Of a stretch of DNA of 64,000 nucleotides, positions 52,222-60,388 are shown one piece after another. Numbering within the stretch: the first letter of the stretch is position 1; the number at the start of each line of letters is the position of its first letter. This stretch comes from Candidatus Latescibacterota bacterium (GTDB lineage Bacteria > Latescibacterota > UBA2968 > UBA8231), in NCBI GenBank assembly GCA_965215195.1, contig CBDCDC010000002.1, positions 3,136,001 to 3,200,000 of the forward strand, written 5' to 3'. The notes below the pieces were generated by a model. That model worked only from the letters and a program-made list of their open reading frames with translations, ran no database searches and was not told where the DNA came from. The position numbers were made by a program, and so were the translations under genes.

Positions 52222-53895
52222 TTGCTGCCCGATATCGAAATTGCCCGCCAGACCCCGCTCCGCCCCATCGACGACGTGGCCGCCCAGCTCGGGATCGGCT
52301 CCGAACACCTCGAACACTACGGCCGCGTCAAGGCCAAGATCTCGCCGGATTTCTGCCAGCGCCTCGCAAACGCGCCGGCCACCGGCAAGCTGATCCTCGT
52401 CTCGGCCATCAACCCAACTCCGGCGGGCGAGGGCAAAACCACCACCACCATCGGCCTCGGCGACGCGCTCAACCGCATTGGCAAGCGCGCCACTGTCTGC
52501 CTGCGAGAGCCTTCGCTGGGGCCCTGCTTTGGCCTCAAGGGCGGCGGCGCCGGCGGCGGCTACGCTCAGGTAGCGCCGATGGAGGACATCAATTTGCACT
52601 TCACCGGCGACATCCACGCTGTTTCCGCCGCCCACAACCTACTCGCCGCGGCCCTCGACAACTACATCCACCACGGCAATGTGCGTCGCATTGACCCCCG
52701 CCGCATCGTCTGGAACCGCGTCCTCGACGTAAATGACCGGGCCCTGCGCGATATCGTCGTCGGGCTGGGGGGGACCGCCAACTCCTTTCCGCGCCAATCG
52801 GGATTCGACATTGCCGTCGCCTCGGAGGTCATGGCCATCCTCTGCCTGTCCGAATCGCGGGCCGAGCTCAAAGAGCGGCTCGGCCGGATCGTCGTCGCCC
52901 AGACCCGCGCCCGCGAGACCATTCGCGCGGCGGACTTGGCGGTCCACGGCGCCATGGCAGTGCTGCTTAAGGACGCCTGCCAACCCAACTTGGTGCAGAC
53001 CCTAGAGGGCAACCCGGCTTTAGTCCACGGCGGCCCTTTTGCCAATATCGCCCACGGCTGCAACTCCATCGCCGCCACCCGCCTGAGCACGCGCCTTTCC
53101 GCATACACCATCACCGAGGCCGGCTTTGGCGCGGACTTGGGCGCGGAAAAATTCGCCAACATCAAGTGCCGCCAGAGCGCCCTAGCACCCGACCTCGTGG
53201 TGTTGGTGGCCACGGTGCGGGCGCTCAAATTCCACGGCGGTGCCGCGCTCAAAAGCATTGCCAAACCCAATGTCGGGGCGGTTGCAAGGGGCGTTGAAAA
53301 CCTCAAGAAGCACATCGAAAATGTCCGCCTCTTCGGCTTGCCCGTCGTCGTAGCGGTCAATGCCTTTGCCGCGGACACCCACGCCGAGATCCAGTGCATC
53401 CGCGACAAGTGCGCTCACCTCGGCGTTGAGATCGTACCCGCAGATCACCACGCTCGTGGCGGCGCGGGTGCTGAAGACCTCGCCCGCACCGTGGTGCAGG
53501 TGGCCGAAAATACCCAGAGCGACTTCAAGCTGCTCTATCCCGACGACATGCGGCTTTGGGACAAGGTGCGCACGGTCGCCCAAGCGATCTACGGTGCCGA
53601 CGATATCATGGGCGACAAGATGCTGCGGAACAAGTTCAGGCGGCTGGAGGACGAAGGCTACGGCAACTTGCCCGTCTGCATAGCCAAGACCCAGTACTCG
53701 CTCTCGACCGATCCCGGGCTCAGGGGGCGGCCGCGCGGCTTTGACGTGCCGGTGCGCGACGTCAAGGTCTCGGCCGGGGCCGGCTTTGTGGTGGTGCTTA
53801 CCGGCGATATTATGACGATGCCCGGCCTGCCCAAAAAGCCCTCGGCCGAGTCGATTGACCTCGACGACGCCGGACAGATCAAAGGGTTGTTCTAA
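52222..53895 (+). CDS. fhs: Formate-tetrahydrofolate ligase
   Basis: [62 protein letters not shown]; AGGAG RBS with TTG start. Confidence 0.98.
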
Positions 53896-53923
53896 AACCT
53901 ACAACCACACAGGACGACGTACC

Positions 53924-55294
53924 ATGTCATTATCAAAGCGACTGGAATCGTGCTCGCTCGAACGCATTACCAAGATGAAGGACGTGGTAATGCAGGAGGT
54001 TGAGAGAATCAACCGCCAGCTAGCCGACGCAGAAAAAGAACTCGAAGAAATGATCGAAAAAGTAGAAACGGTCCGTTTGAGCAAAAGGCACGGCCAATAC
54101 GAACTGAGTCTGGATAAAGCCGAATCCCAGCTCGCAAGGTTAAACGCCGAAAAAGACAAGTTGTTGGACAAGGTCCGGATCATTGAGCAGGCGCGGCAAA
54201 AGAAACATCTGATGGATGAACAGGCCAGAGTGCTGGGCAGCGTTGGGCGGGTGAAAGTTAAAGACCTGTTCATCTTTTTTCTCATTCTTTTTTTGATAGC
54301 TATTCTGGTCATCGACTTGCTCGGCATCGGGGCCACAGGGGGGGGTGCTGTTGCAAAGGCCGAAGTAGTAGAAGGCAAGATACATCGAATAGTCGTTCTG
54401 AACGGAGGAGCAGGGTACGAGCGCGTGAATATTGAAATAGCGGATGCGGTTGGGTCTGGGGCACTTGCTTCTGGACAGGTAGTTGGGGGTACATTAGCCC
54501 ATCTAAACGTCATCGAGGGCGGAGAAAACTACGCGAATCCCGTCGTAGAAGTACTGCCCCACTTTGCCGTTGGCACGTTGTGGATATTCTGGATCATAGA
54601 CGTGATATGCTGCACCATTTTCATGGCCAACTTTTTCTTTGAGCACAGGCTTGCCGCTTCCAAAAGGTGGTATTGGAAGCACAACTGGATCGACTTCATA
54701 ACGTCCATTCCGCTTCCCCCGGTACAGGTCATTGCCGCGTCCGGCGACCTAGGTATCGTGCGCTTGGGGCGTCTGCTCCGGGCCGTGCGTATTTTGAGGG
54801 CACTGAGGTTATTCCGCATCGCGCTGTTTTTCTGGCGCGGCATGGATCACTTGAGCTCCACGTTGGACGTGCGGCTCCTCAAGCGATCCCTGCTGTATGG
54901 CCTGTTATCGCTCGTGTTTGGAGCCTGCATTTTCATGGGCTTGGAGCGCATGGAGTCTGGTTCGGGCTTTTGGGCGAGTCTTTGGTGGAGCTTTACGACG
55001 CTGGTCACCGGCGGGTATGCCGACATCCACAATCCCCAGACGGCGTCGGGCAAAATCCTCACCGTTTTTCTGGTGATTACGGGTATGGTTCTGGTGGGGG
55101 TTTTTACGGCGACGCTGACGAGCATCCTCGTCAGCGACGAGGACTCTTTGAAGGTTGAGGAGCTCGAAGAGCAGGTTGGGATCATTACAAAAATTCAAGA
55201 CGACCTAAAAGACACCAACGAGCGTCTAAGTAAGCTGGAAAGCGCCATCCGCGAGATCGGGGACGCGATAAAGGCGCAGGGGAAGCAATCATAG
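53924..55294 (+). CDS. 6-TM voltage-sensor cation channel (Kv-like) with coiled-coil termini and an extracytoplasmic insert
   Basis: S3 NWIDFITSIP; S4 RLGRLLRAVRILRALRLFR; pore SLWWSFTTLVTGGYAD..PQTASGK. Confidence 0.85.
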   Translation: MSLSKRLESCSLERITKMKDVVMQEVERINRQLADAEKELEEMIEKVETVRLSKRHGQYELSLDKAESQLARLNAEKDKLLDKVRIIEQARQKKHLMDEQARVLGSVGRVKVKDLFIFFLILFLIAILVIDLLGIGATGGGAVAKAEVVEGKIHRIVVLNGGAGYERVNIEIADAVGSGALASGQVVGGTLAHLNVIEGGENYANPVVEVLPHFAVGTLWIFWIIDVICCTIFMANFFFEHRLAASKRWYWKHNWIDFITSIPLPPVQVIAASGDLGIVRLGRLLRAVRILRALRLFRIALFFWRGMDHLSSTLDVRLLKRSLLYGLLSLVFGACIFMGLERMESGSGFWASLWWSFTTLVTGGYADIHNPQTASGKILTVFLVITGMVLVGVFTATLTSILVSDEDSLKVEELEEQVGIITKIQDDLKDTNERLSKLESAIREIGDAIKAQGKQS

Positions 55295-55387
55295 ACGAGC
55301 CCGTTCCAAATCGGGGTCCGCATCCTCCACCATGAGTACCCAACGCTGATGAGTTTCATTGTGCTATCCTCCTTTTGAGTAACTGAC

Positions 55388-55511
55388 CTAAGTACACGAC
55401 AGTAGAGCCTTACCCTCGGATCGAGGGCATCTTGCCCTCGTCGAGGGCGGGACGCCCTCGATCCCGGACTCATCGCCCATCAACGACAAGTTATTGGTGT
55501 CGTGTAGTTAG
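55388..55511. mobile_element. MITE, 124 bp (family A copy 3)
   Basis: Differs from 51176-51299 at one position that I could see; flanks GTAACTGAC / ATAACTGAC (8 of 9 match). Confidence 0.9.
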
Positions 55512-55558
55512 ATAACTGACTTTAACTACAAGAAGTGTAGAAAATCATACCTGTAACT

Positions 55559-57460
55559 TTGCTTCTAGCACTAGCGGCGATCCGAGTCGTGGCTGCCGAT
55601 GTGCCCGCCGCTGTCGGCGTCCCCCCGGAAGTTTTGGATCCGCCTTGGCTGCAAAGCCGTCGCCAGAGCCAGCTAGACGCGGCCAAGAGCTATGCGGTCT
55701 TTTGCGATTTTCGCTTCACGGACCGCCAGCCCGCCAGCGGCATTACCTTCCACCACCGCATCGTCGATGACTCGGGGCGGCACTACCGGCCCAATCACTA
55801 CGACCACGGCAATGGAATTGCCTTGGCGGATGTCGATGGCGACGGGCGCACAGACCTCTACTTTGTCAACCAAGCCGGGCCGAACGGGCTGTGGCGCAAC
55901 GCGGGCGGCGGACGCTTTGAGGACATCACCGAGCGCGGCAGCGTGGCACTCGCCGACCGCATTGGCGCGACCGCTTCCTTTGCCGACCTAGACAACGACG
56001 GAGCACCCGACCTGTACGTCACCAACGTGCGCGTGGGCAATGTTCTCTTTCGCAATCGAGGCGACGGGCACTTTGCGGACATTTCCCAAGGGTCTGGCCT
56101 CGATCACGAGGGGCATTCTTCGGCGGCCCTCTTCTTCGACTACAACCGCGACGGGCAGCTCGACCTCTTTTTGACCAATGTGGGGCAGTACACCGAGCGC
56201 GGCGATCCGGTCGCGGTTATTGGCTTTGCGCCCGAGGAACAACTGGAGCAATACCACTACTACGTCGGCTTTAAGGACGCCTTTGCCGGGCACCTCAAGC
56301 CCGAGCGCACCGAGCCGAGCCTGCTCTTCCGCAATGCGGGCGAAAACCGCTTTGTCGATGTGACCGAGGAGGTTGGGATCAAGGCCGATGGTTGGTCCGG
56401 CGACGCAGTACCGCTAGACGCCAACGAAGACGGCTGGCCAGACCTGTACGTACTCAACATGCAGGGGCCCGATCAATACTACGAAAACGACCAAGGCCAG
56501 CGCTTTATCGACAAAAGCCTAGCGGTCTTCCCGCGCACGCCGTGGGGGGCCATGTCGGCCCAGATCCTCGACTTTGACAACGACGGCCACCAAGATCTCT
56601 ACATCACCGACATGCACTCGGATATGAGCGAGGACATTGGGCCGGAGCGCGAAAAGCGCAAGTCGCGGATGCAGTGGACCGAGAGCTTTCTCCGCTCGGG
56701 CGGGCGCAGCATCTACGGCAACGCCTTTTACCACCGCCAAGCCGACGGCACTTACGCCGAGATTTCCGACTCCATCGGCGCGGAAAATTACTGGCCTTGG
56801 GGGCTGAGCGCCGGCGACCTCAACGCCGACGGATACGAAGATGTCTTTATCACCGCCAGCATGAACTACGCCTTCCGCTACGCGGTCAACGCCCTGCTGC
56901 TCAACGACCGCGGCAAGGGCTTCCTCAACGCCGAATTTGCCCTTGGAGTTGAGCCGCGGCGCGAGGGGCGCACGGCCATGCCGTGGTTTGCCCTAGATTG
57001 CGCCGGGGAGTACGCAGATCATCCCGACTGCGAGGGGCGCAGCGGCCCCCACGTCTTCTGGGGTGCGCTAGGCTCGCGTGCGTCGGCACTGGCGGACTTG
57101 GACGACGACGGCGACTTAGACATTGTCACCAATGAATTCAATGCGCCGCCAATGGTGCTAATCAGCGATCTGAGCGACCAAAAGGCGGACCTCAACTTCC
57201 TCAAGATCCGCCTTATCGGCACCCGCTCCAATCGCGACGGTCTCGGCGCGGTGGTCCATGTTCACACCCCTGCCCACACCTACACCCAGGTACTCGACGG
57301 CAAGTCCGGCTACCTCTCGCAGAGCCTCTTGCCGCTCTACTTTGGACTCGGGCCGGTCAGCACTGTTGAGCGCATCGAAGTGCAGTGGCCTGCTGGCACT
57401 GCGCAGACCGTTGCCGGCCCCATAGCGAGCAACCAACTCGTCGAAATCAGGGAACCGTAG
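55559..57460 (+). CDS. CRTAC1/ASPIC-UnbV family FG-GAP repeat protein
   Basis: Repeated DxDxDG..DLY motifs; C-terminal SNRDGLGA..GYLSQS..LYFGLG..VQWP. Confidence 0.92.
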   Translation: MLLALAAIRVVAADVPAAVGVPPEVLDPPWLQSRRQSQLDAAKSYAVFCDFRFTDRQPASGITFHHRIVDDSGRHYRPNHYDHGNGIALADVDGDGRTDLYFVNQAGPNGLWRNAGGGRFEDITERGSVALADRIGATASFADLDNDGAPDLYVTNVRVGNVLFRNRGDGHFADISQGSGLDHEGHSSAALFFDYNRDGQLDLFLTNVGQYTERGDPVAVIGFAPEEQLEQYHYYVGFKDAFAGHLKPERTEPSLLFRNAGENRFVDVTEEVGIKADGWSGDAVPLDANEDGWPDLYVLNMQGPDQYYENDQGQRFIDKSLAVFPRTPWGAMSAQILDFDNDGHQDLYITDMHSDMSEDIGPEREKRKSRMQWTESFLRSGGRSIYGNAFYHRQADGTYAEISDSIGAENYWPWGLSAGDLNADGYEDVFITASMNYAFRYAVNALLLNDRGKGFLNAEFALGVEPRREGRTAMPWFALDCAGEYADHPDCEGRSGPHVFWGALGSRASALADLDDDGDLDIVTNEFNAPPMVLISDLSDQKADLNFLKIRLIGTRSNRDGLGAVVHVHTPAHTYTQVLDGKSGYLSQSLLPLYFGLGPVSTVERIEVQWPAGTAQTVAGPIASNQLVEIREP

Positions 57461-59960
57461 CGCGTCCGCTCCGTCGTTTGAGTCCGCGCAGCGCACCGCG
57501 CTCTCCGGGGTCTATTTCCCGCGCCCGCGCAAAGGCTGCGGCCGCCCGCTCTCCATCCTTTTCGAGCAGGGCAATCGTCCCGAGCACGGTGTGCCGCCGG
57601 GCGGTCAAGCGCCGCTCAAGCACTTGTACAACCTCTGTGGGAATGTCTGCCGATAGATGCGGTCGAGGATTGACGACTAGGTGCGCGGCCAAGCTCTTGA
57701 GTACGGGTAGGCCGCCGCTGGTGCCGCGGCGGCCGCGGTCGGTAAAGCTGATGTAGGGGCGGTCGTCCGTATTGATCGGCCCGCTGCCCGCGTAGGCCGC
57801 TAGCTCCTTTTCGCCCAAGACTAAGGCGCTCAAAAAAGAGGGCGGATCGCCCAGATCTACCGAGCGCAAATTCGCCCGCACCGCCGGCTGCCCTAGCTTG
57901 CGCTCGAGCGCAGCGTAGTCTATGAGCAGTGCGTCCGGCGTGCCCAGCAGGATCGAGTACTGATGGGTCAGCCACAGCGAAGCGTGCGGATACACGGCCC
58001 GGAAGGTCCGCAGAATCATCTTATAGTCCTCCACCGACAGCCCGTGCAGCGGCAGCCACTGGGCGACCAGCCCGTCCGCGCCGACGCGGCCGCGGCAGAG
58101 CCGGTAGAACTCCTCGGTATAGAGCACCCAGCTATCGGCCGTGCCCGGATGCGTGGCGTCGCAGATGATGGCGTCGTATTGCCGCGGCGTGCGCAGCACG
58201 TGGTTGCGGCCGTCTTCAGCGACCAGTTCGATGGGTGCTTGGTGGAGGCGGGTGGCGATCTGGCGGTTGTAGCGGGCAAAATAGGGCGCAGCTCGCGGGA
58301 CGCCCGGCACCAGTTCGGCGCAGTCGAGGCGCACCGGCTGGTGCAATTCGGCTGCGGACAGGGTGATGCCGCCGCCAAAAGCAATGACCAGCACTTCGGC
58401 TGGATCGGGGTGCAAGACCAGCGGCAGGTGCCCCAGCAGGCGGAAGGTCTGTAGGGAGGCGTAGTCTGTGGGGACCTCGCCGCCGCCGTTGACCTTGAGG
58501 ATCCGTACGCCATCCTGTTTCTGGTGGACCGAGACCGTGGCACCAGCACCCTCGTCCCAGTAGAGCAAGCGGCTGTTTGGCTCGGACCAGTGGAACAGCT
58601 CCACGAAGAGGCCGGCCGGCAAAAGCAGCGTCAGGGCCAAGCCCAGCGCCAAGCCGCCGACCGTGCGCACGGCCTTTTTGCGCGCCTGCGCGGCCGGGTC
58701 CAGCGCCAAAACCACCGCGCCGACGGCGATATTGACCCACGCCAACACTTGGATGCTCCGATAGGTGCCCAGCAGAGGGAGCAGCACAAACCCGGCGACC
58801 AGTGCGCCGGCAATGGCTCCGAGGGTATTGGCGGCGTACACAGTGCCGACGCCGCGGCCTAGCTGCTCAATGCGCGGGATGCACACCTTGGCCGCGATGG
58901 GAAAGAGCAGCCCCATCAGCAGGGTCGCCGGGAGCATTACGACGAAGGCGGCGACGAACAGCTTGGACAGATGGCCCTCCCACGAGAGTGCGCCGCCCCA
59001 CGCTTCGACGATATAGGGTATGCTGCCAAAGGCGGCAATTGAGCTTAGGCCACACAGCCCGATGAGCAGCTCCACCGCGCCAAAAGCCGCCAGCGGCGTA
59101 CGCCAGCGATCGCTCAAACGCGCCCCGAGCGCGGCCCCACCGGCCAACCCCAGCAGGAAGGCGACGAGGATCGTGCTCAGGCTTTGGGCGGTGGCACTTT
59201 GCAGGAGCATCGCCAAAAGCCGCGTCCACAGCACCTCGTAGCCGAGGGCCACAAATCCCGAAAGCGCAAATCCTGCCAAGACTAATTGACCCTCTAAGAT
59301 GGTGGGTGCGGCACTGCGCTCTACGCTCGTCTGCTCTTGCTGGCCATCGCGGCTCCAGCAATAGGCGACCACGGCGATGAGCAGGTTGCCGGCCGCCGCC
59401 GCATAGGTAGTGCCGCTGACGCCCAGATGTTCAAGCGCGAAAAAGGCCGCGGCCGCACATCCTGTGGCCGCGCCTAGCGTATTGGCCGCGTACAGGCGTC
59501 CCATATCCCCGCCGACTCGCTCCAAGCGGTGCGCCACGGCCTTGCTCAGCGTCGGCAGGGTGGCCCCCATGAGGGTGGTCGGCACCAGCAGCAGCGCGAA
59601 CGCGAGCAGCAAGCGGACGAGTACAAAGGCCCCGTCTATACCCTGCAAAGAGCCGTATAGTGCCGTGTACATCTCGTCTAAGCCCGCAAGCAAAAGCGGG
59701 AATATCAGGGCAAAGACGCCTATGCCCAGTTCCAGCAGCGCGTAGAGCCGCAGGCCGTTGCCCCGCCGGTCAGCTACCCGTCCACACCAATAGCTACCTA
59801 GGGCGAGACCGGCCATAAAGGCGGCCAAAACAATACTGACGGCAAAGGTGCTGACGCCGAACACGGGCATCAACATGCGCACCCACACGACTTGATAGAC
59901 GAGGGAGCAGGCTCCGGAGAAAAAGAACAGGATTAGCAGGGCCAAGGGGGTTTTGCTCAC
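57447..59960 (-). CDS. Fused membrane domain/spermidine-synthase-like protein
   Basis: FFSGACSLVYQVVW, LMGATLP, LYAANTLG (duplicated TM module); EDGRNHV..YDAIICDATHP..LYTEEFY. Confidence 0.9.
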   Translation of the reverse strand: MSKTPLALLILFFFSGACSLVYQVVWVRMLMPVFGVSTFAVSIVLAAFMAGLALGSYWCGRVADRRGNGLRLYALLELGIGVFALIFPLLLAGLDEMYTALYGSLQGIDGAFVLVRLLLAFALLLVPTTLMGATLPTLSKAVAHRLERVGGDMGRLYAANTLGAATGCAAAAFFALEHLGVSGTTYAAAAGNLLIAVVAYCWSRDGQQEQTSVERSAAPTILEGQLVLAGFALSGFVALGYEVLWTRLLAMLLQSATAQSLSTILVAFLLGLAGGAALGARLSDRWRTPLAAFGAVELLIGLCGLSSIAAFGSIPYIVEAWGGALSWEGHLSKLFVAAFVVMLPATLLMGLLFPIAAKVCIPRIEQLGRGVGTVYAANTLGAIAGALVAGFVLLPLLGTYRSIQVLAWVNIAVGAVVLALDPAAQARKKAVRTVGGLALGLALTLLLPAGLFVELFHWSEPNSRLLYWDEGAGATVSVHQKQDGVRILKVNGGGEVPTDYASLQTFRLLGHLPLVLHPDPAEVLVIAFGGGITLSAAELHQPVRLDCAELVPGVPRAAPYFARYNRQIATRLHQAPIELVAEDGRNHVLRTPRQYDAIICDATHPGTADSWVLYTEEFYRLCRGRVGADGLVAQWLPLHGLSVEDYKMILRTFRAVYPHASLWLTHQYSILLGTPDALLIDYAALERKLGQPAVRANLRSVDLGDPPSFLSALVLGEKELAAYAGSGPINTDDRPYISFTDRGRRGTSGGLPVLKSLAAHLVVNPRPHLSADIPTEVVQVLERRLTARRHTVLGTIALLEKDGERAAAAFARAREIDPGERGALRGLKRRSGRATVP

Positions 59961-60388
59961 GGCCGGTCCTTTGTGAAATGATCTAATCCTTGATATTGAA
60001 ATGCACTGCAAGATGAACATAAACTTTGAGTGGGATTCAAGGGTCTAAACACAATGTCTCGTTTGCTGAAGCTCAACTTGCGTTTTCGCATCATCGCCGC
60101 TGATGTCAAACACAGCCCCCTTTTTGTTTTGGAAAAGTTGAGGGCGTTTTACGTAGCGAAAAGGCAATCTCCGCATTTTTGGTGCCGGTTATTGGCGCGA
60201 ACGGCGGTACGCCCGCCAACGCCGCCGATCTCGCGGCCCTCGTGATGGATCGGCTGGGTGAGATCGCTCGCAAAATTCGCGGCGGTCCCACTTCCGATTG
60301 GCACCAGTATTGGAATGTCGATCAATACAACCGACCGACAGGTGAGAAGCCAGAGGACGCCTGCCGCGATAATCTGTTATCGGACTTA

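Follow-up and report, generated by a model that had tools for sequence, protein, structure and literature searches.

We describe here a gene in a 64,000-nucleotide stretch of contig CBDCDC010000002.1 from a Candidatus Latescibacterota bacterium; by the window we mean the whole of this stretch, and positions are counted from its first letter. The gene occupies 53924..55294 on the forward (+) strand, as do all of the features within it given below, and encodes a protein of 456 residues plus stop (P0001), as defined by the list of open reading frames (ORFs), the translation, the Pfam and KvAP/Kv1/Kv2 matches, and the homologues. Judged by its sequence, the product is a voltage-sensor channel subunit of the Kv/KvAP type, and its S1-S2 loop holds a two-unit repeat whose relatives include repeats of phage virion proteins. 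The reading that we prefer, to which we assign a probability of about 0.6, is that of a Kv-type channel whose insert has been domesticated as an accessory or tether module.

According to this proposal, the gene would encode one subunit of a tetrameric voltage-sensor cation channel, of Kv/KvAP type, that probably prefers K+ and has a non-canonical outer filter. The clade to which it belongs would be defined by a T-G-G-[F/Y]-[G/A]-D filter, a cytoplasmic N-terminal helical domain of ~100 residues, and a C-terminal helix. In one subclade, the very short S1-S2 loop would have gained two units of ~38 residues, which may fold jointly as a single compact beta-sandwich of six strands. This would lie on the periplasmic side of each voltage sensor, four to a channel. 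As a domesticated, built-in accessory module, the insert would either tune the voltage sensor or tether the channel to a component of the periplasm or cell envelope. We infer this role by analogy, and we rank it as the most likely role of the insert, ahead of neutral decoration, with phage sensing last; that is, we do not think that the insert is a phage detector.

The assignment to the voltage-sensor channels, already made in an earlier note that was written from the sequence without database searches, is borne out by matches to Pfam Ion_trans (residues 222-401; 54.5 bits against a cut-off of 25, E 1.2e-14) and Ion_trans_2 (residues 328-403; 40.6 bits against a cut-off of 22.5, E 2.3e-10). 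A sequence search of the PDB returned 142 sequences at E<=0.01, headed by full-length KvAP (6uwm, E 1.6e-11, residues 209-443), with Kv2.1, Kv1.2 and Kv1.3 following. The S1 transmembrane helix (residues 111-135, 54254..54328) is hydrophobic, lacks Lys and Arg, and aligns with S1 of relatives that have no insert. S2, the predicted cytoplasmic S2-S3 loop and S3 (residues 213-272, 54560..54739) are placed by the KvAP alignment, by invariant columns and by charges: D226, E240 and D257 are invariant in 20 close homologues, and D226 and D257 across the wider clade as well. In S4 (residues 280-304, 54761..54835), read from the sequence and its list of residues, there are seven Arg at every third position (280, 283, 286, 289, 292, 295 and 298), where the earlier note had seen an Arg-rich S4; throughout the clade R280 and R292 are invariant, and R286, R289, R295 and R298 are nearly so. 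The S4-S5 linker, S5, pore helix, filter and S6 (residues 306-403, 54839..55132) are assigned from the Ion_trans_2 match, from identity among homologues, and from the ratio of nonsynonymous to synonymous substitution rates (dN/dS). From this homology we infer voltage gating and a tetrameric state.

The filter hexapeptide lies at T362-D367 (55007..55024). Since the HMMER alignment sets TLVTGGYAD of the query opposite TATTVGYGD of KvAP, with the filter and pore-helix stretch LWWSFTTLVTGGYAD facing LWWAVVTATTVGYGD, the hexapeptide is TGGYAD, in the place of TVGYGD, just as originally noted. The filter Thr, the first Gly, the aromatic residue, the next Asp and the WW motif of the pore helix are all kept, which argues for a K+-type filter. 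The K+ signature T-x-G-[Y/F]-G-D is nevertheless broken, because the second Gly is Ala in TGGYAD. Among the matches listed, 120 close homologues (69-99% identical to the window protein) have TGGYAD in 116 cases and TGGYPD in four.

The two ends of the protein were originally described as coiled coils, which they may be. A probably cytoplasmic, possibly coiled-coil N-terminal region (residues 1-110, 53924..54253) is recognised by predicted helices, by conserved columns, including the motifs CSLERI and HGxYEL, and by weak Pfam matches; an acidic C-terminal helix (residues 404-456, 55133..55291), possibly a coiled coil for tetramerisation, is predicted likewise and is present clade-wide. Long helices are predicted at 12-45, 62-104 and 413-453 in a low-confidence full-length AlphaFold2 (AF2) model, and the coiled-coil-type Pfam matches are weak (E 0.03-0.7).

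The insert occupies residues 136-212 (54329..54559) of the S1-S2 loop. It measures 77 residues in the alignment of insert-bearing with insertless relatives, in the latter of which only ~5-10 residues separate S1 from S2. The two units, residues 137-174 (54332-54445) and 175-212 (54446-54559), are of 38 residues each. Their local alignment scores 66, as compared with 23.4 +/- 4.8 when the second half is shuffled, and none of 2000 shuffles reaches 66; the two-unit insert first placed at ~54338-54553 lies inside the interval measured here. Across 24 inserts, each 28-80% identical to that of the window, seven Gly/Tyr positions, which we take as a scaffold, are invariant. Kv channels have their N-terminus in the cytoplasm and their S1-S2 loop outside. 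Because of this topology and the distribution of charges (4 Lys/Arg against 8 Asp/Glu in the insert, 4 against 1 in the S2-S3 loop, and 4 against 2 in the S4-S5 linker), the insert would face outward, that is, into the periplasm of a diderm cell, which we assume the host to be.

Relatives of the insert are found in phages. When the 86-residue insert alone was searched against the PHROG families, it matched phrog_2885 ('baseplate wedge subunit', E 7.1e-8), two families labelled 'virion structural protein' (phrog_19630, E 1.3e-7, and phrog_701, E 6.9e-7), two further baseplate wedge families (phrog_438, E 7.4e-5, and phrog_708, E 1.1e-3), and the head-closure or neck family phrog_460 (E 0.012). 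The same query, compared by tblastn with 50,697 phage records, matched 27, of which 26 are cyanophages. The best of these, from Synechococcus phage S-MbCM6, has 41.5% identity over 93% of the query (E 2e-6), and in one S-MbCM6 record the match falls inside a 21-kb gene annotated 'gp8 baseplate wedge protein' that adjoins gp25 and gp6. By these sequence comparisons, the insert is homologous to repeats of the baseplate and virion proteins of T4-like phages, a likeness that the earlier note had suggested. Both the insert and the tandem ~37-residue repeats of the cyanophages (PHROGs 2885, 438, 708, 19630 and 701; AFD02696.1, the 'gp8 baseplate wedge protein' of S-MbCM6) follow the unit pattern G-x-G-A...G-x-[IV]..[IV]..[IV]...G-x-G-Y. 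The phage repeat, however, occurs in tens of tandem copies within virion proteins of 1,000-7,000 residues, whereas the window insert has exactly two units, which form one domain in the loop of a membrane protein.

The repeat is also found, by an all-against-all HMMER search and by a profile search with the 24 inserts, in many large proteins. One protein of 3,161 residues contains 35 profile matches, with a periodicity of ~37 residues visible. Some repeat-bearing proteins have Phage-Gp8, Baseplate_wedge or tail-sheath domains as well; others combine the repeat with Laminin_G_3 and List_Bact_rpt, with DUF4214 and cadherin, with a lactonase propeller, or with Cu-oxidase and FG-GAP. Since it is present in phage proteins and in non-phage extracellular proteins alike, the repeat must be regarded as a promiscuous extracellular and virion module that is not exclusive to phages.

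The 80-residue insert was modelled by AF2 from the alignment of 24 inserts. The model (predicted local distance difference test, pLDDT, 94.3; predicted template-modelling score, pTM, 0.79) is a beta-sandwich of six strands, three from each unit. A Foldseek search of the predicted viral structures of BFVD with this model gave 17 matches at E<=1e-3, with query template-modelling (TM) scores of 0.76-0.92 and root-mean-square deviations mostly of ~1-3 Å (one of 4.4 Å), both sides of each comparison being predictions. Among these matches are structural proteins of cyanophages and a 'baseplate wedge initiator'; a neck protein and a phiM9 tail-sheath protein just miss the E threshold. The Foldseek comparison that the earlier note had proposed thus recovers predicted phage proteins in BFVD and nothing clear in the PDB, and the insert, as modelled, has the same fold as the phage repeat units.

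Other searches yielded little. The insert alone matched no Pfam family at E<=10, and a PDB sequence search returned nothing for the insert or for the giant repeat protein P0126. The profile of the inserts, run against the PDB, matched HypE (3vti, E 0.0055), which we judged spurious. The same profile gave a match, below significance at E 0.043, to Dpo31/Dpo36 tailspikes, the depolymerases of Klebsiella-phage type (28lx, 28mg, 8ck1); it covers chain residues 440-520, which contain two units of the G-x-G-Y type, and Foldseek against the PDB did not recover these proteins. The best score for the insert in the ESM Atlas was 0.83, under the level that the tool treats as meaningful, and a search of viral contigs with a single insert gave 27 pattern matches with none confirmed. 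In the genome of the window there is no second copy of the repeat, the next best matches having E 0.14 and 0.5.

The clade that contains the gene is considerably larger than the set of channels with the insert. A homologue scan of 1.84 billion representatives gave 4,158 matches at E<=1e-3 and 73 at E<=1e-30. A regular expression located the filter in 107 of 149 representatives (among the matches listed, P0011 left out): TGGFGD in 37, TGGFAD in 22, TGGYAD in 7, TGGYGD in 2, TGGF[T/S]D in 3, and singletons such as TQGYAD, while the 24 with TVGYGD come from more distant, ordinary Kv-like matches. Given the prevalence of TGG filters among these representatives, Gly in place of the filter Val is a hallmark of the whole clade; the second signature Gly varies within it, being G, A, S, T or P. 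Besides S1-S6, the clade has in common an N-terminal helical domain and a C-terminal helix. A TGG[FY][GA]D filter is therefore not peculiar to the window gene, and most members of the clade have it without the insert.

The survey of homologues with and without the insert, as the earlier note had suggested, confines the insert to one subclade amid an insertless majority. Insert-bearing members are P0122, P0123 (labelled Verrucomicrobiales), P0124 and P0138, plus fragments. Among species-representative genomes the insert is present in 55 of the 69 loci retrieved, one of them a fragment. These loci are mostly titled 'Candidatus Latescibacterota' or 'Gemmatimonadota/Gemmatimonadaceae' metagenome-assembled genomes (MAGs); seven more are from Verrucomicrobiota (Puniceicoccaceae, Opitutales, Roseibacillus sp. 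and others), and two are contigs of a single low-GC MAG labelled Pseudomonadota. TGGF[GA]D channels that lack the insert come from Planctomycetota (Scalindua rubra among them), from Roseibacillus persicicus, from a Leptolyngbya-labelled MAG, and from an uncultured bacterium. We built a tree, by a quick method, from 60 rows and 370 columns; columns filled in fewer than half of the rows were dropped, so that the insert was mostly excluded. The 10 insert-bearing rows are all contained in a single clade of 11 (97 by the Shimodaira-Hasegawa-like approximate likelihood ratio test, SH-aLRT). The eleventh row is the insertless R. persicicus protein (P0125), sister to an insert-bearing row. As an insertless row is nested in the insert clade, a minimum of two changes is implied: a gain and a loss, or two gains.

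Two observations concern individual members. P0138 (463 residues, insert-bearing) aligns as far as S3/S4, after which no similarity remains, the filter included, in the manner of a frameshift; either the gene is broken or the assembly is in error. The Pseudomonadota-labelled MAG has two insert-bearing TGGYAD channels on separate contigs, at L031:2647-3999 and L073:3861-5126. The flanks in L031 have a G+C fraction (GC) of 0.375, and its channel gene has a GC at third codon positions (GC3) of 0.33. The inserts of both channels are 49% identical to that of the window, and the pair could be paralogues, strain variants or a binning artefact.

The channel gene is single-copy in the assembly of the window. 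Within the phylum, 49 of 168 genomes, the window's included, have an orthologue (70-89% identity); these genomes are confined to 5 of 49 genera, with frequencies of 25/30, 3/3, 2/2, 4/10 and 14/15. Genomes that our tool assigned to this one phylum have public titles that are partly 'Candidatus Latescibacterota' and partly 'Gemmatimonadota/Gemmatimonadaceae', so that the name of the phylum to which the window's organism belongs depends on the naming scheme.

We also assessed the strength of selection along the gene. In pairwise comparisons of 20 homologues, mean identity reaches 0.87-0.93 in the membrane core (0.93 from the S4-S5 linker to S6, residues 306-403); the insert (0.65) and the terminal helices (0.62-0.65) are less alike. 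By the method of Nei and Gojobori, applied to the 730 of 946 pairs among 44 orthologues whose whole-gene dS lies between 0.3 and 1.5, median dN/dS stands at 0.05-0.07 across the membrane core (0.05 for residues 306-403), at 0.20 in the insert and at 0.22 in each terminal region; the measure is coarse, since the pairs lack independence and some have a dS close to saturation. The insert is under purifying selection, and there is constraint, with no regional excess of replacement changes.

Several results weigh against a Kv-type channel with an accessory or tether module. The role of the insert is drawn from analogy; gating, selectivity and tetrameric state rest on homology. No solved structure offers a functional lead: the best E of Foldseek with the insert against the PDB is 1.5, and a wide VIA-align search gave at best a Z of 4.0, to filamin-type domains of a generic immunoglobulin (Ig)-like kind, which is not above background. 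The full-length AF2 model, built with 20 close homologues, has a pLDDT of 50.2 and is unusable for the packing of the insert against the voltage sensor or the pore. Because the second filter Gly is replaced by Ala, or by Pro in 4 of the 120 close homologues, the preference for K+ is uncertain. Finally, in 7 of 55 loci, drawn from two families, a gene for an HsdR-Schlafen/AlbA_2 protein stands directly upstream on the same strand (five intact, two fragments), and this neighbour, along with the patchy presence in 5 of 49 genera, would also fit a role in genetic conflict.

Depending upon how the filter is read, the channel might be non-selective among cations, in the manner of NaK or CNG channels, or might conduct another ion; this is compatible with any role of the insert, and we regard it as a minority possibility, though the strongest of those that compete with our proposal. 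The variation of the second signature Gly across the clade argues that the outer filter is non-canonical. Proline is unable to take every backbone geometry that is open to glycine, and the Val of TVGYG has become Gly throughout the clade. Conversely, the Thr, first Gly, aromatic residue, Asp and WW motif are conserved, and many members retain both glycines, as in the 37 TGGFGD filters among the 107 found. Of the altered selectivity that the earlier note had proposed, the departure of the filter from the K+ signature is upheld; such a filter marks a wider clade, most of which has no insert.

Somewhat less probable, and in our opinion doubtful, is that the insert is a neutral or structural decoration, captured once by recombination and kept because it is stable and either harmless or a shield for the sensor, without a ligand or regulatory role. 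Most members of the clade do well with S1-S2 loops of 5-10 residues, P0125 lacks the insert within the insert clade itself, the conserved positions of the insert are mostly a Gly/Tyr scaffold, and the phage repeat forms the long arrays that are typical of decoration domains. Yet the insert is full-length in all 54 of the complete insert-bearing loci, from at least two phyla, and its dN/dS of 0.20 points to constraint on the sequence beyond foldability.

The weakest explanation is the one that the earlier note had put forward, namely a phage or contact sensor whose periplasmic beta-sandwich would detect a phage tail or baseplate, or damage to the envelope, and so open the channel, depolarise the cell and abort the infection; we consider it very unlikely. 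On a still more specific version, which we hold to be just as improbable, the four beta-sandwiches would be a receptor for the repeat-built tail or baseplate proteins of phages, or for their target in the envelope, and penetration by the tail would pull on S1-S2 and depolarise the cell. The channel would then be a single-gene abortive-infection sensor acting through a captured virion domain, sometimes beside an HsdR-Schlafen module, a notion to which we give equally little credence. What speaks for these ideas is the homology of the insert to phage baseplate, neck and sheath repeats, the patchiness of the gene, and the HsdR-Schlafen neighbour, which is the sole hint in their favour from the loci and provides no direct support. 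Gating by an external ligand, which the earlier note had also inferred, finds no support in these results either.

This neighbour deserves description. The fusion protein, of 1,170-1,385 residues, joins domains of the R subunit of type I restriction enzymes (HSDR_N, SWI2_SNF2/ResIII and T1R_D3-like) to a C-terminal Schlafen/AlbA_2 domain, and occurs at L058:1703-5860 (+), L041:2232-5759 (+), L038, L060 and L074, with fragments at L032 and L039; the flanks examined at these loci showed neither HsdM nor HsdS. The copy in L058 is 78-79% identical to copies of the other family, so that the adjacency of HsdR and channel may be old. In loci of the g24 type there is a conserved frame, MoeA ... channel-(MFS)-PD40-HNH, in which the HNH gene follows PD40 on the far side of the channel, and a variable stretch between MoeA and the channel that holds HsdR, Fic/DOC and HTH_3 genes. 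The channel is part of the conserved frame and is present with or without HsdR, which counts against a sensor. So do the housekeeping neighbours in the window's genus (fhs, SDR and a pyridoxal-phosphate (PLP) decarboxylase), the dN/dS of the insert, which shows no excess over the flanking helices, the occurrence of the repeat in non-phage extracellular proteins, and the location of the loop, which would be periplasmic rather than surface-exposed. Moreover, PADLOC-DB 2.0 (2023 library) contains no family that matches the channel, or either of its neighbours in the window, at E<=0.01.

The wider neighbourhood was compared by clustering the neighbours, with Pfam annotation, in flanks of +/-6 kb at 55 loci. 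Among them are a TonB-dependent receptor (27 loci), a convergent PLP decarboxylase (26), fhs (25) and a PD40 propeller (13). No neighbour is common to all lineages or conserved across genera in these flanks, and fhs and SDR stand upstream only inside the window's genus. These results, and the PADLOC search, give no support to a multi-gene system. In five loci (L071:7223-9094 (+), L073, L075, L076 and L077) the channel gene is directly followed, on the same strand, by one for a sulfatase (Pfam Sulfatase, E 1.2e-58) that may overlap its end; four of the loci are labelled Verrucomicrobiota, and L073 is on a contig of the Pseudomonadota-labelled MAG.

Channel genes in phages are a separate matter. 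One PHROG family without assigned function, phrog_7872, matches residues 221-434 of P0001 (E 7.5e-26), and some phages therefore encode Kv-like channel proteins. In a tblastn search of GenBank phages with the part from S2 to the C-terminus, a single record was found at E<=1e-5, an 'ion transporter' of Lactobacillus phage JNU_P5 with 33% identity. There is thus no sign in that collection of phages that carry this channel clade.

Among known systems, the closest are KvAP of Aeropyrum pernix (6uwm, 1orq, 2a0l) and the eukaryotic Kv1 and Kv2 channels, which are alike in the six-helix layout, the Arg-rich S4, and the alignment from pore through filter to S6. The window channel differs from them in having TGGYAD for the TVGYGD of KvAP, a 77-residue predicted beta-sandwich in the S1-S2 loop, seven Arg in S4, and, in place of a T1 domain, an N-terminal helical domain of ~100 residues, along with the C-terminal helix. 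Within the clade, P0125 (the R. persicicus 'potassium channel family protein', WP_411845472.1) is 43% identical to the window protein and shares its N-terminal domain, S1-S6, its type of filter and its C-terminal helix; in P0125 and the other insertless members, however, the S1-S2 loop has only a few residues and no repeat. As far as our searches went, we found no insertless member that has been characterised.

Animal Nav channels have beta subunits with Ig domains beside their voltage sensors. These likewise place a small extracellular beta-sandwich next to a sensor, and the analogy is one of function. The Nav beta subunits, however, are polypeptides in their own right, have a true Ig fold and share no homology with the insert, whereas the window domain forms part of the sensor loop itself and resembles Ig domains weakly (Z <= 4.0).

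In the literature, the string TGGYAD appeared in no paper's text; for GGFGD, GGYGD, GGFAD or GGYAD, none of the titles and abstract openings listed is about channels, and none of those listed is about the repeat or about S1-S2 loop domains in prokaryotic channels. The source databases name the proteins of the clade generically, as 'ion transporter' or 'potassium channel family protein'. As far as these searches show, the channel clade and the loop domain are undescribed, given the literature listings, seen as titles and abstract openings, the generic names, and the absence of a Pfam model.

The gene bears on several questions. It would mean that a loop of the voltage sensor which spans a few residues in most of the clade can host a whole folded domain, and it offers a natural construct for probing the effect of an extracellular load on S1-S2 in voltage sensing. 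A still unnamed beta-sandwich repeat, which no Pfam family covers and no solved structure clearly matches, would have moved among virion proteins of phages, large surface proteins of bacteria and a membrane channel of the host. A sizeable, unstudied Kv-like clade is also brought to light, in Gemmatimonadota/Latescibacterota, Verrucomicrobiota, Planctomycetota and a Leptolyngbya-labelled MAG. The second glycine of K+ filters is described as 'absolutely conserved', and the G, A, S, T or P that the clade has at this position bears on how far such filters tolerate change. Sensing of phages by the channel, if true, would be a new kind of phage defence.

Some properties of the gene remain to be given. 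The longest ORF in its frame is 53855-55294 (+). The ATG at 53924, which the earlier note had chosen, is the start common to homologues, and M1 is conserved in 20 aligned sequences; the protein begins MSLSKRLESCSLERI, and homologues have the same first residues. This start lies 28 nucleotides past the stop of the upstream gene fhs (formate-tetrahydrofolate ligase). A scan for promoters and terminators in window 53400-55700 gave counts no higher than in shuffles, and a search for RNA data over window 53500-55600 returned none. The GC of the channel gene is lower than that of fhs, as first noted (0.527 vs 0.649), and so is its GC3 (0.65 vs 0.83, with neighbouring genes at 0.77-0.83). We considered this GC3 deficit as a signal of transfer and rejected it as not diagnostic, because in other genomes the GC3 of the gene follows that of the host, as for example in locus L064 (0.93). 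Within the gene, GC3 is lowest in the insert (54329-54559; 0.455, as against 0.749 for S2-S6); the domain is old enough to be common to several families.

Further along the window, at 57447-60020 on the reverse (-) strand, lies a gene for a protein of 857 residues, in which an MFS_1-like membrane region (residues 29-332) is joined to a spermine/spermidine synthase domain (residues 528-654). The gene converges on the FG-GAP/ASPIC-UnbV gene at 55559-57460, and the two have a small overlap.

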